From the IMG/VR virus record IMGVR_UViG_3300015607_004160: a stretch of 64,000 nt of DNA. One strand, 5' to 3'. Position 1 is the first letter of the stretch; every line of letters starts with the position of its first letter. The stretch is from a virus (taxonomy: Duplodnaviria; Caudoviricetes). The position numbers and the translations under genes are program-made. The notes under the pieces are model-generated. The model was not told where the DNA came from, did not search any database, and saw only the letters and a program-made list of their open reading frames with translations. Positions 6,840 through 32,431 of the stretch are shown here, one piece after another.

Positions 6840-8612
6840 ATGAACTTTTCAATAAATTATTATCAACTCCTAGGATTAAATAATCAAGCTACAGATAAGG
6901 AGATAAAAAAATCTTATTATAGATTATCCTTCGAACATCATCCTGACCATGGAGGCGACCCATTGATTTTTGGTAGAATTACTGAGGGATATGATATATT
7001 AATGGACGCCAAAAAAAGAAAGGAATATGATTGTAGAAGTAAATGGGGGAAAGACTATGATGAATCTACTGAGTTTTTTAATTATGAATTTGATAATCCA
7101 TCTACTGGTTGGGATGAAGAAAAATTAAAAGATTTTAAAAAGAAAGAAAGACTAAATGTTGTTTGTAGGATTGATGACTCATTTGATGGATCAATTGAAT
7201 ATGAAAGATGGGTTGTTTGTAAGAAATGTAAGGGAACTGGTAAGGATGATAAATCTAAAATTGAAATAAAAGATGAAAGTGGAAATATAGTCAAGGTTTA
7301 TGACTCTGATGGTGGTTGTGATTTTTGTTTTGAAGAGAATAATTATGTTATTACTAAATCAGGAGCTGTTAAAATCAGTGAAATCAAAGTAAATGAAATG
7401 GTTTTATCATCAAATAATACTTATGAAAAAGTAACACATTTATTGAAAAGGGTTTACACTGGTAAGGTATTGGATATAAATGTTTCTGGTTTGAAAATAA
7501 ATGGAATAACCGACAATCACAAATTGAATATTGCTAGATTTAAAAAAAATAAACATGGTAGAATTATTATTAATGATTATGAAATTATGGAAATTCCAGC
7601 ATCCGAATTATTAATTTCTGATTATGTTATTTACCAGAATCAAATGGGATTTTCAAAAGATAAAGTAGTGCTAGAAAAAACACATAATAGAAAATCTAAA
7701 GAATTGTTGATTGATTCAAATTTTATAAAATTTATATCTTGCTATATATCAGAAGGTAACACAAGAGGTGGTAGAGTAGTCGTTTTGACTTTTCATAAGG
7801 AAAAAGATTCATCATTAATCGAGTTTATTGAAAAATATACCAAAAATCAGCTAGACTCCGAAATAAAATTTATAAGTAATGAAAAATGGGGTGATAAAGT
7901 TGCTAAAATTGAAATACATAATTCACAACTAGCTAAATTTCTTGATGATTTTTGCGGACATCTAGCAGAAAATAAATTTATTAACCCGGACATATTAGGA
8001 AAACATGATAATATTTTATTAGATACTCTACTGATGTGTGATGGATATAAAAAAAATAATTGTAGTACTTATACAACGATTTCTAAAAAATTAGCTTATC
8101 AAATATTTCACATATCTCAAAATTTAGGATATAACTCATCAATTGGTACATATAATGAATATGTAGATAAAAATGGAATTAGACATATGACTTGTTACCG
8201 TGTTTATATTACTAAATTAAAAAAAATGGGAATATCCAAAAAGGTAATTAAAGAAGGAATTTGTTTAAAAGTTAAAAGTATAGAAAAAAGAAATATTATT
8301 TCTACAAATGTTTATAATATAACCGTAAATAATACACATAAATATACAATAGATGGGCTTTTAGTAAATAATTGTGAAGGAACTGGAAAAGGATATAACG
8401 ATGAGCCTTGCACATTTTGCTTTGGACAAGGTAAAGTTGGAAGTAAGCCATGTAAAACCTGCAACGGTGAAAAAAGAATATTAGGTAAGCAAAAACTAAC
8501 AGGCATACTTTTTCCCAAAGATGCTAAAGATTTTAAAGTTGAATTCATGGGAAACTTCTCCAAAGATATCCCTGGAAAGGTAGGCCACTTATGGTTAGTT
8601 AAATCATCCTGA
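6840..8612 (+). CDS. dnaJ: DnaJ-like co-chaperone (J domain plus zinc finger) interrupted by an intein
   Basis: NYYQLLG and HHPD; CxxCxGxG repeats CKKCKGTG, CDF[intein]CEGTG, CTFCFGQG, CKTCNGEK; 241 aa after splicing. Confidence 0.85.
   Translation: MNFSINYYQLLGLNNQATDKEIKKSYYRLSFEHHPDHGGDPLIFGRITEGYDILMDAKKRKEYDCRSKWGKDYDESTEFFNYEFDNPSTGWDEEKLKDFKKKERLNVVCRIDDSFDGSIEYERWVVCKKCKGTGKDDKSKIEIKDESGNIVKVYDSDGGCDFCFEENNYVITKSGAVKISEIKVNEMVLSSNNTYEKVTHLLKRVYTGKVLDINVSGLKINGITDNHKLNIARFKKNKHGRIIINDYEIMEIPASELLISDYVIYQNQMGFSKDKVVLEKTHNRKSKELLIDSNFIKFISCYISEGNTRGGRVVVLTFHKEKDSSLIEFIEKYTKNQLDSEIKFISNEKWGDKVAKIEIHNSQLAKFLDDFCGHLAENKFINPDILGKHDNILLDTLLMCDGYKKNNCSTYTTISKKLAYQIFHISQNLGYNSSIGTYNEYVDKNGIRHMTCYRVYITKLKKMGISKKVIKEGICLKVKSIEKRNIISTNVYNITVNNTHKYTIDGLLVNNCEGTGKGYNDEPCTFCFGQGKVGSKPCKTCNGEKRILGKQKLTGILFPKDAKDFKVEFMGNFSKDIPGKVGHLWLVKSS
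7326..8372 (+). mobile_element. Intein (349 aa) with LAGLIDADG-type endonuclease
   Basis: Starts CFEENNYVITKSG; ends VYNITVNNTHKYTIDGLLVNN before Cys+1; helices FISCYISEG and LDTLLMCDG. Confidence 0.88.
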
Positions 8613-30130: not shown

Positions 30131-30138
30131 TATCTTTG
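30131..30138 (+). promoter_or_regulatory. Bacteroidota-type -7 promoter element
   Basis: TATCTTTG matches TAnnTTTG. Confidence 0.55.
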
Positions 30139-30142
30139 TGTG

Positions 30143-30175
30143 ATGTATAACAGTATGTTGTGTTGTAAAATATAA
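30143..30175 (+). promoter_or_regulatory. Putative Cys leader peptide MYNSMLCCKI
   Basis: Tandem TGT TGT codons, hairpin at 30188-30206, upstream of a CysRS-domain gene. Confidence 0.45.
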
Positions 30176-30234
30176 TTGCATTTTTGATACCAGTCTTGAC
30201 TGGGTAGGTTTCTATTGAAAAAAAATTATATTTT

Positions 30235-30594
30235 ATGAACTATACAACAAATATAGATGAGCTCATTTCCATTAGAAATGAGGCAAGGAAAAATAAAAAT
30301 TGGAAAGCCGCTGATGAAATTAGGGACTATTTAGATTCCCAAAATGTTTTTATCTTTGATCATCCCAATAATATACAAGAGGTTCTTCACCTCCCCGAAT
30401 CCTATTTTAATCATAGTTATTTTTATAATATTGACGGTGTTCAATGGGGTGAAAATAGAATCCAAAAAATAGAACGACTGTATAATATTAAATTTAAAAA
30501 CAAAAGACATTTTGTTGAGTGGAATATTCGTCAAGAGAGATTAGCAGAAAGTAGATTTGAAGCCTGGTTGTATTCAACTTTAAAGTCGTCCTAA
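30235..30594 (+). CDS. Stand-alone CysRS C-terminal (anticodon-binding)-like domain protein
   Basis: LISIRNEARKNKNWKAADEIRDYL...VFIFD matches the CysRS RxxARxxKxWxxADxIRDxL motif. Confidence 0.7.
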   Translation: MNYTTNIDELISIRNEARKNKNWKAADEIRDYLDSQNVFIFDHPNNIQEVLHLPESYFNHSYFYNIDGVQWGENRIQKIERLYNIKFKNKRHFVEWNIRQERLAESRFEAWLYSTLKSS

Positions 30595-30666
30595 TAAATT
30601 TTTTTAATTTAAGAAAAATTCATATCTTTGTAAAACAAATCAGAATTTTCTAATATATAAACAACA

Positions 30667-30720
30667 ATGAAGTTTATTTCAACATATTCACTCTTATTAT
30701 CAGCTCTGCGAAAGTGCTGA
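30667..30720 (+). CDS. Leucine leader peptide MKFISTYSLLLSALRKC
   Basis: CTC TTA TTA ... CTG codons directly upstream of attenuator hairpins and leuS. Confidence 0.8.
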   Translation: MKFISTYSLLLSALRKC

Positions 30721-30776
30721 TAGTGGTATGCTTATAACTAATTGAAACCCTCGGCACTTGTGTCGAGGGTTTTTTT
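30698..30776 (+). promoter_or_regulatory. Ribosome-mediated transcription attenuator
   Basis: 1:2 TATCAGC/GCTGATA; 2:3 AAGTGCTGA/TCGGCACTT; 3:4 AAACCCTCGGCA-CTTG-TGTCGAGGGTTTTTTT terminator. Confidence 0.82.
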
Positions 30777-30802
30777 ATTGCTAAAAAATCAAAATAAAAA
30801 AT

Positions 30803-32431
30803 ATGAATTACAATCCGAAAGAAATAGAATCAAAATGGCAGAAAGTATGGGAAGAAAATCAATCTTTTAAATCAAATGATAAAGATGATAAAAAATATGT
30901 CGTCCCTATGTTCCCTTATCCAAGTGGTAATATTCACATGGGTCATATGAGGAATTATACAATATCAGATGCAATTGCCAGATATTGGAGAAACAAAGGA
31001 TATAATGTTTGTCACCCAATAGGATTTGATTCCTTTGGAATGCCAGCAGAAACAGCCGCAATTACAAGAGGTGTTCATCCAATGGAGTGGACAAGATCTA
31101 ACATTCAAAATATGAAAGATGAAATGAAAAGAATGGGTATTTCTTTTGATTGGTCGAAAGAAGTATCTACTTGTGAAGTTGATTATTGGAAACACGAGCA
31201 AAAATTCTTTATTGATATGTGGAAAGCCGGCTTTGTTGAAAGAAGAACTGGTATAGTAAATTGGGACCCTGTTGATCAATCTGTTATTGCAAATGAACAA
31301 GTTATAGATGGAAGGGGATGGCGTTCAGGCGCAATTATTGAGAAAAAAGAAATGACACAATATTATTTTAAGACAACTATGTTTGCAGATGATATGTATG
31401 AGTCAATTAAAGAGGTAGATGATTATTGGCCTGAGGTTGTAACTAAACAACAAAGGCAATTTATTAAAAATGGAATACAAAAAGATGGTATAAATATACC
31501 ATTTTCAGACTGGTGTATATCAAGACAAAGATATTGGGGAACTCCAATTCCAATGGTACATTGTGACAAATGTGGAGTTGTTCCAGATGAAAGTATACCA
31601 GTGATTGCTCCACATGATGTTGTATTTGATGGTCATGGAAACCCAATTGCAAATCATCCAACATGGAAAAATTGTAAGTGTCCGAGTTGTGGGTCTGATG
31701 CAACAAGGGAAACTGATACAATGGATACTTTTGTTCAATCAAGTTGGTATTTTATTAGATATATTTCTGATATTATTGATAGTAAATTTGATTATGATAT
31801 CATTAAGAAATGGTTTCCAATAGACTACTATATTGGTGGTTCTGAACACGCAATTGCTCATATGATTTATTCCAGATTTTTCTGGAGAATATTTAAAAAG
31901 ATGGGTTATATACCAGATGATGTTGCAACTGATCCATTCAAAAATGTTATTACTCAGGGAATGGTCAAGAAGGATGGTAAAAAAATGTCTAAGAGTGCGG
32001 GTAATGGAGTATCACCTAAAGAAATAATTGAGACATGGGGAGCTGATACTTGTCGTATGTATATAATATTTGCCGCACCACCTGAACAGGATATGGATTG
32101 GTCTGATCAAAACATTGTTGGTTCTGCACGATTTATGAATAGGTTTTGGAGCGGACAATTCAGAAATGTAGAACATATTGTTGATAAAAAATCAGAAGAA
32201 ATAGCTATTCAAAAGATAGAAATGATGAAGAAAAAAATAATTAATGTATATGAAAAAACATATAAATTCAATACAATAGTTGCAGGTGCAATGGAAGTTC
32301 ATAATGCGATTAGTCGTCAAACAAATCCTGATATTTATAAAGAAGGCTATAGGGTTATAATCGAAGCAATTTCTCCGATATGTCCCCATATTTGTGAAGA
32401 AATAAAACAATCGTTTATTAGAGAAAAATAA
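30803..32431 (+). CDS. leuS: Leucyl-tRNA synthetase, minimal form (no CP1 editing domain, no C-terminal domain)
   Basis: IESKWQ, MFPYPSGNIHMGH, DWCISRQRYWGTPIP, RETDTMDTFVQSSWY, KMSKS; 542 aa. Confidence 0.92.
   Translation: MNYNPKEIESKWQKVWEENQSFKSNDKDDKKYVVPMFPYPSGNIHMGHMRNYTISDAIARYWRNKGYNVCHPIGFDSFGMPAETAAITRGVHPMEWTRSNIQNMKDEMKRMGISFDWSKEVSTCEVDYWKHEQKFFIDMWKAGFVERRTGIVNWDPVDQSVIANEQVIDGRGWRSGAIIEKKEMTQYYFKTTMFADDMYESIKEVDDYWPEVVTKQQRQFIKNGIQKDGINIPFSDWCISRQRYWGTPIPMVHCDKCGVVPDESIPVIAPHDVVFDGHGNPIANHPTWKNCKCPSCGSDATRETDTMDTFVQSSWYFIRYISDIIDSKFDYDIIKKWFPIDYYIGGSEHAIAHMIYSRFFWRIFKKMGYIPDDVATDPFKNVITQGMVKKDGKKMSKSAGNGVSPKEIIETWGADTCRMYIIFAAPPEQDMDWSDQNIVGSARFMNRFWSGQFRNVEHIVDKKSEEIAIQKIEMMKKKIINVYEKTYKFNTIVAGAMEVHNAISRQTNPDIYKEGYRVIIEAISPICPHICEEIKQSFIREK

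Follow-up and report, generated by a model that had tools for sequence, protein, structure and literature searches.

Attenuation by a translated leader peptide has been described for leuL of E. coli and Salmonella and for the trp, his, thr, ilv and pheA leaders of the same class (PMC1183508), and the locus described here resembles these in its tandem cognate codons, its 1:2, 2:3 and 3:4 helices, its terminator with a U tail and the geometry of the ribosome stall. Synthetase genes can be governed in the same manner: E. coli pheST (through pheM) and, by prediction, Streptomyces leuS and trpS have, immediately upstream of the synthetase gene as at our locus, a leader of cognate codons together with a terminator and an antiterminator, and the predicted Streptomyces leuS attenuator agrees with the case examined here in both gene and amino acid (PMC1262725). 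In Flavobacteria, biosynthetic operons are preceded by leader-peptide attenuators and synthetase genes by structured leaders (PMC9723704), and by analogy flavobacterial leader attenuation is a plausible source of the phage device. Why phages carry tRNAs and synthetases is a question more than 50 years old (PMC10264068); huge phages encode up to 15 synthetases each, and the text of the report describing them mentions neither attenuation nor a leader (PMC7162821).

The window analyzed here is a stretch of 64,000 nucleotides from a virus record (IMG/VR IMGVR_UViG_3300015607_004160) of 185,258 bases and 28.6% G+C, in which a leuS gene encoding a LeuRS of 542 amino acids (30803 to 32431, + strand) is preceded by a short leader ORF and an intrinsic terminator. 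An earlier note on this DNA had interpreted the arrangement as a leucine attenuator controlling a phage leuS, and had proposed folding and a search for covariation in relatives as checks, both of which were run. We consider it likely, with a probability of roughly 0.88, that the cassette is a classical leucine-sensing, ribosome-mediated attenuator of leuS that operates in a feedback loop with a leucine-free LeuRS. What was directly observed, and is described in what follows, is the set of sequence elements with its conservation and covariation, the geometry in the folding model and the purge of leucine from the enzyme.

All elements of the leader region lie on the + strand. A TAnnTTTG box of the Bacteroidota-type sigma-A -7 kind occupies 30623 to 30630 (the exact box precedes 6 of 11 Leu leaders), and if it is set at -12 to -5, a placement after PMC9723704, transcription is predicted to start near 30635. 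No -33 box is evident upstream of it, and the genome-wide enrichment of TAnnTTTG before genes is modest (22 against 9.6 expected, about twofold). The promoter-like motif TAATATATA at 30651 to 30659, 16 nt 5' of the leader ATG, is a putative phage promoter, and 46 of its 67 copies in the genome are located 8-60 nt before a gene start, where 2.0 would be expected. The leader ORF itself (30667 to 30720, with the ATG at 30667 and the TGA ending at 30720) encodes 17 amino acids, MKFISTYSLLLSALRKC, and has A at both -3 and -6 of its start, positions at which A is favoured in Flavobacterium initiation (PMC6847099). It contains a run of three leucine codons, Leu9-Leu10-Leu11 (CTC TTA TTA, 30691 to 30699), and a fourth, Leu14 (CTG, 30706-30708); at the composition of this genome an LLL run would occur by chance in a 16-aa ORF with a probability of about 0.6%.

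Segment 1 (30694 to 30704) pairs with 30716-30726 in helix 1:2, and segment 2 (30712 to 30726) contributes 30712-30720 to the antiterminator 2:3, where it pairs with 30751-30759. Segments 3 and 4 constitute the intrinsic terminator (30748 to 30776), with a stem at 30748-30769 followed by a tract of seven T at 30770-30776, and the leuS ATG at 30803 is located 26 nt beyond that tract. In a scan of the 185-kb genome for cassettes of promoter, short ORF and terminator, the leuS cassette was the sole free-standing one to pass the filter; four other rows that passed were rejected as cassettes, as they lie inside longer genes.

The leader region folds significantly better than shuffled sequences (z -4.61, 0 of 200 shuffles as good), with energies for the isolated helices of -14.2 (1:2), -12.9 (2:3) and -17.7 kcal/mol (3:4). 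Segment 2 is common to 1:2 and 2:3, and segment 3 is common to 2:3 and 3:4. We modelled the stall geometry by folding the nascent RNA as far as segment 3 extends, its 5' portion being masked to imitate a ribosome, with five mask lengths from 6 to 15 nt past the A-site codon. When Leu9, Leu10 or Leu11 occupied the A site, the constrained folding gave a probability of 2:3 of 0.98-1.00 with masks of 6-15 nt, so that the run falls within the modelled antitermination window for 5 of 5 mask lengths. With the A site at codon 5 the probability was 0.03 for masks up to 12 nt, and 1:2 formed instead; from codon 15 onward it was 0, segment 2 being covered and segment 3 free for the terminator. A ribosome at Leu14 already covers segment 2 with masks of 9-15 nt, which puts this codon outside the antitermination window for those masks, and since 2:3 is then unable to form, the sensor consists of three codons rather than four.

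At equilibrium the terminator of the finished leader always wins over 2:3, and therefore readthrough requires that 2:3 form first, as a matter of folding kinetics. An antiterminator that forms ahead of the terminator is usual for attenuators of this class. Other features of the class are present as well: by sequence and folding, the terminator lies between leader and gene and the antiterminator shares the terminator's 5' arm, and in the model a stall on the control codons frees segment 2 and arrival at the stop codon masks it. The 1:2 hairpin, at which polymerase would pause in such systems so that translation and transcription are coupled, is there too. The 17-aa leader, four Leu codons, T7 terminator and two upstream boxes listed in the earlier note are thus all in place; its mutually exclusive 1:2, 2:3 and 3:4 helices are borne out by the shared segments 2 and 3, the fold and stall geometry agree with the attenuation it proposed, and its four Leu codons require a single correction, in that all four exist but a control role falls to Leu9-11 and not to Leu14.

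Relatives of the locus were used to ask what has been conserved. A Leu-run leader with a terminator was found before leuS, or before a tRNA-Leu block leading into leuS, at 12 of 14 loci, the 14 being the distinct loci of the LeuRS clade with upstream DNA, window included. The cassette stands directly before leuS at eight of them (the window, L001, L003, L004, L006, L092, L095 and L100), among which the LeuRS proteins are 60-85% identical; at L089, L090 and L102 the leader and terminator precede a tRNA-Leu block that runs into leuS, and at L098 they are found one ORF further upstream. In L098 (5258-5986) and L102 (19219-19989) ORFs that contain leucine and look by eye like homing endonucleases sit between the Leu leader and leuS, and, being inserted there, would be switched together with leuS. 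In close strains, loose contig ends at window positions 30804 and 30807 may likewise mark insertions. No Leu leader was detected near the leucine-free LeuRS of L093 or L094 (at 6001 in each); L094 has a TAnnTTTG box immediately before the leuS start codon, and its sequence suggests that this leuS may be expressed without attenuation. A different, more distant lineage of short LeuRS (L103, L105) is likewise preceded by this leader family.

The Leu runs use four codon types, TTA, CTA, CTC and CTT, in changing order, and such synonymous swapping indicates that it is the amino acid that is kept and not the letters. Leucine alone is conserved in the stall window across relatives, the neighbouring residues varying, and the distance from the run to segment 2 is 11-15 nt. 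In L001, L003, L004, L095 and L098 the modelled antitermination window overlaps the Leu run as well, L098 having the same switch logic with helix sequences that are unrelated. Compensatory changes were observed in both 2:3 and 3:4, in the covariation check proposed earlier: in 2:3, 93.8% of cells are paired and 3 of 8 pairs have changed on both sides (a count reached by 2 of 500 shuffles, with slid controls giving 0), and in 3:4 the figures are 94.9% and 4 of 10 pairs, all from a set of 8 alignable leaders that are few and related, with 2 of the 3 two-sided 2:3 changes coming from one sequence.

Searches further afield were largely negative. Leu-run leader and terminator occurred together at 0 of 63 distant, mostly full-length leuS loci from metagenomes, a weak control because those loci are mostly GC-rich and not likely hosts. 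A pattern for the leader family gave 5 matches in 185,579 species genomes, 0 of them with the leader before leuS, this exact pattern being one that misses diverged copies; the same search thus found no copy that would indicate a host (cellular) origin of the leader. In viral contigs a single-sequence search returned no relatives and an alignment query three. Three of four viral-contig pattern matches (L104, L106 and L107) were rejected as Leu attenuators, since each is a terminator that lacks a Leu leader and stands ahead of a mixed tRNA array. The region is present in four wastewater metatranscriptomes of one study, as contigs from which no ends, strand or level can be read.

The regulated gene provides a second line of evidence. 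The window LeuRS scores 625 bits against TIGR00396 (leuS equivalog, cut-off 548), its predicted structure has the LeuRS fold (pLDDT 88.5, TM 0.90), and all 39 sequences compared share the HMGH and KMSKS motifs and many residues of the core. Relative to an 816-aa relative it lacks blocks 226-411 (CP1 editing) and 741-816 (C-terminal tRNA-binding), and its core is joined to KMSKS without the leucine-specific domain; the LeuRS of Mycoplasma mobile matches it over one continuous stretch (TM 0.88). In a tree built by a quick method the phage enzymes group in one clade (48 rows, support 99), the donor not being resolved by the tree, and the clade includes the LeuRS of the 735-kb phage LR756501 (69% identity). 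The nearest named full-length matches are from Campylobacterota, which we did not take as the host. Nested in the short clade are three leucine-free proteins of 645-647 aa (P0035, P0036 and P0037; L098 6001-7938) that match the CP1 family PF13603. Other huge phages have a second LeuRS type of 422 aa (L103 7998-9266; L105 9723 onward), the L105 copy of which appears frameshifted after 263 codons.

Not one of the 542 residues of the window LeuRS is leucine, which makes up 7.7% of the ORFs of its genome; the chance probability of this is about 1e-19, and every other ORF of at least 200 aa in the genome has at least 3.5% Leu. Leucine is absent altogether from 40 of 45 clade members, which together have 5 Leu in 24,605 aa, and makes up 8.0% on average of 72 full-length relatives. 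In 27 columns where at least 90% of these 72 have Leu it has been replaced in the clade, mostly by Ile, Met or Val, and the replaced columns include the position near the active site that matches Neisseria L550, which is Ala in the window and Ser or Gly in the clade. An enzyme without leucine is translatable while Leu-tRNA is missing. The purge is evidence independent of the RNA analysis, and points in the same direction, to a gene built for translation when Leu-tRNA is lacking. The second-type LeuRS of L103 has 18 Leu in 422 aa under the same leader family, which shows that the leader does not depend on the purge.

Matching between leader and target extends to other amino acids. In L095 the gene that follows leuS encodes a HisRS of 222 aa (7705-8509) behind a His-rich leader with terminator and antiterminator, and this HisRS has 0 His in its 222 residues. 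Elsewhere the leaders are rich in the residues carried by the tRNA block that follows, Leu/Arg in L004 and Glu/Tyr and Ala/Gly in L006, and further matches include Met/Gln and Trp/His/Phe/Lys/Ser in L102, Pro/Asp/Gln in L103, and others. Matched cassettes of leader and terminator are located at L004 8924, L006 14160 and 20124, L089 2020 and 5697, L090 1367, L100 7896, L102 5973, 18307 and 39250, and L103 9870 and 10805, with another on the minus strand of L093 before a tRNA-His pair. For 11 cassettes the agreement of leader composition with the downstream set of tRNAs and synthetases scored 4.07, against 1.44 when permuted (0 of 100000 permutations), in a set that was partly chosen by eye, collapses the pure Leu leaders to one and omits arrays without a cassette.

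Some synthetases of L006 (17837-18991 and 20935-21635) and L001 (7115-8377) are poor in their own residue: an AlaRS fragment has 1 Ala in 233 aa, and TyrRS has 6 Tyr in 384 aa and 9 in 420. The tRNA-Leu blocks near short LeuRS genes (L089 2579-2981, L090 1543-2961, L102 18620-19164, L004 9083-9429 and L100 8301-9137) mix long-arm tRNA-Leu of 81-88 nt with forms of 73-76 nt that have no long variable arm. Judging from their sequence, these 73-76-nt forms are possible substrates for a LeuRS without the C-terminal domain.

The promoter motifs and the LeuRS clade (PMC7162821) suggest a Bacteroidota-type host for the window phage, the replication of LR756501 being predicted in Bacteroidetes (PMC7162821). 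The record is probably partial, because a 338-kb contig carries the same LeuRS protein cluster. No tRNA genes were called in its 185 kb, and a search for the gp23 capsid family in this genome found no match, the search controls being equally blank. Upstream of the leader lies an accessory cassette (30131-30631) with a Cys-Cys mini-ORF at 30144-30176, flanked by two identical 9-base promoter boxes at 30131-30139 and 30623-30631; close strains from wastewater runs are without it, with junctions 30139->30632 or 30118->30613. The cassette also holds an ORF of 119 aa, the start of which resembles the anticodon-binding domain of CysRS. No strong terminator passed the filter within 30131-30631, and a Cys attenuator there is an unproven candidate.

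Taken as an attenuator of this class, the cassette would work as follows; leader translation, co-transcriptional switching, charging of tRNA by the enzyme and the natural trigger are the parts that we infer. RNA polymerase would start at either of two promoters, host-type or phage-type, and the leader would be translated by a ribosome. With ample Leu-tRNA the ribosome would reach codons 14-18 and cover segment 2, 3:4 would form, and transcription would stop at the T7 tract. On a stall at Leu9-11 only segment 1 would be covered, and 2:3 would form before segment 4 is made, allowing readthrough into leuS. The leucine-purged LeuRS, made without Leu-tRNA, would then restore charging and close a negative feedback loop. 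The phage thus probably makes LeuRS when charged Leu-tRNA runs out, and the leucine-sensing attenuation of a phage leuS proposed in the earlier note is supported by geometry, conservation, covariation, matched leaders and the Leu purge alike.

Of the possible triggers, a steep fall in charged tRNA-Leu in the course of infection seems to us more likely than mild starvation, since extra synthetase cannot supply leucine and the complete purge implies near-zero Leu-tRNA. A broader proposal, which we offer tentatively and with slightly less than even confidence, is that jumbo phages of Bacteroidota-type hosts possess a translation-rescue regulon, in which codon-matched attenuators sense single tRNA families and answer with tRNAs and with stripped-down synthetases purged of their own residue, whose synthesis could then begin with none of the charged tRNA left, the driver being host defence or shut-off that degrades particular tRNAs or strips their charge and not nutrient shortage. 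Depletion of tRNA as a host response is documented (PMC10264068).

Several other readings were weighed against the leucine-sensing attenuator. The switch might operate as described and its product not charge tRNA at all, the protein instead binding or protecting tRNA-Leu, forming leucyl-adenylate only, or acting as a decoy for an attacker of host LeuRS; this reading concerns the product only, and is compatible with the attenuator. The absence of CP1, leucine-specific and C-terminal domains, the Ala at the Neisseria L550 equivalent (Ser or Gly in the clade), the poor or absent charging by archaeal LeuRS-I and LeuRS2 (PMC9437257) and the lack of any tRNA gene in the 185 kb of the window genome are all consistent with a non-charging protein. 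We nevertheless find it unlikely, since HMGH, KMSKS and many core residues are invariant over the 39 sequences, the leuS equivalog cut-off is passed, the leuS genes of relatives are located in tRNA-Leu blocks, and the LeuRS of Mycoplasma mobile, in which a tetrapeptide replaces the LSD, serves as a minimal active scaffold (PMC3643597).

That the leader senses a general slowing or loss of ribosomes, the Leu run being incidental, is hardly credible: Leu is the only residue kept in the stall window while its neighbours vary, other cassettes carry His, Gln, Tyr/Glu or Ala/Gly instead, matching their targets, and with no ribosome 1:2 forms and then the terminator, even though a modelled stall at any of codons 8-12 or so would be enough to open the switch. 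A constitutive leaky terminator that ends an upstream transcript or damps leuS, accompanied by a chance short ORF, would agree with 3:4 being the most stable helix and dominant at equilibrium, but the gene upstream of the cassette varies among relatives and is missing in close strains where the cassette is retained, a promoter box separates that gene from the leader, and the ORF, the Leu run, the 11-15 nt spacing and the 2:3 pairing are all conserved, so that we rate this a shade lower still. Least probable is a T-box or other tRNA- or ligand-binding riboswitch; many synthetase genes of Firmicutes are under T-box control (PMC1262725), but no Rfam family reaches threshold in the window, promoter to terminator spans only about 140 nt, the leader is too short for a T-box and is coding, and what is conserved is a run of synonymous Leu codons in frame and not a single specifier codon in stem I.

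Placed beside the described systems, the probable leucine-sensing attenuator of the window differs from the leuL class in controlling a synthetase and not biosynthesis, and in its viral setting; in contrast to the CUA run of Salmonella leuL, the phage leaders use mixed TTA, CTA, CTC and CTT. Rfam leader families, including the enterobacterial leu leader, gave 0 matches in the window, and the predicted mechanism is the same as that of the enterobacterial leu leader in a different sequence family. Whereas pheST and the Streptomyces attenuators adjust an essential cellular gene, the virus gates an accessory, truncated, leucine-free enzyme, and related phages, unlike those systems, apply the same device to blocks of tRNA genes. 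Like the phage LeuRS, that of Mycoplasma mobile (PDB 3ziu; PMC3643597) is minimal, with a short peptide for the leucine-specific domain; the phage chain is shorter still (542 against 637 aa), ends after the anticodon-binding helices, lacks leucine altogether and falls in a phage clade of its own. A parallel is provided by phage tRNAs in counter-defence (PMC10264068), phage translation parts possibly offsetting host tRNA loss in both cases, and two further reports on phage tRNA counter-defence (PMC11555353, PMC11464382) may show the same likeness; by this analogy the window attenuator may be linked to defence.

A codon-specific sensor before such genes implies production on demand, upon the failure of one aminoacyl-tRNA, and as the leader codons name the failing tRNAs, a simple reporter would be enough to test why phages carry these genes. 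With 542 residues and no leucine among them, the enzyme takes avoidance of the cognate amino acid to an extreme, independently supports the purpose of the sensor, and is a natural minimal LeuRS for studies of synthetase evolution and of proteins with reduced amino acid sets. A literature search, in which subscription journals were poorly covered, turned up neither phage attenuation nor a leucine-free LeuRS, and no demand-sensing control of phage-encoded translation parts, in keeping with the earlier view that the device was undescribed in phages, the mechanism itself being known for synthetase genes. The attenuation class, including its use before synthetase genes, is already known; the viral setting and the leucine-free output did not appear in the literature searched.
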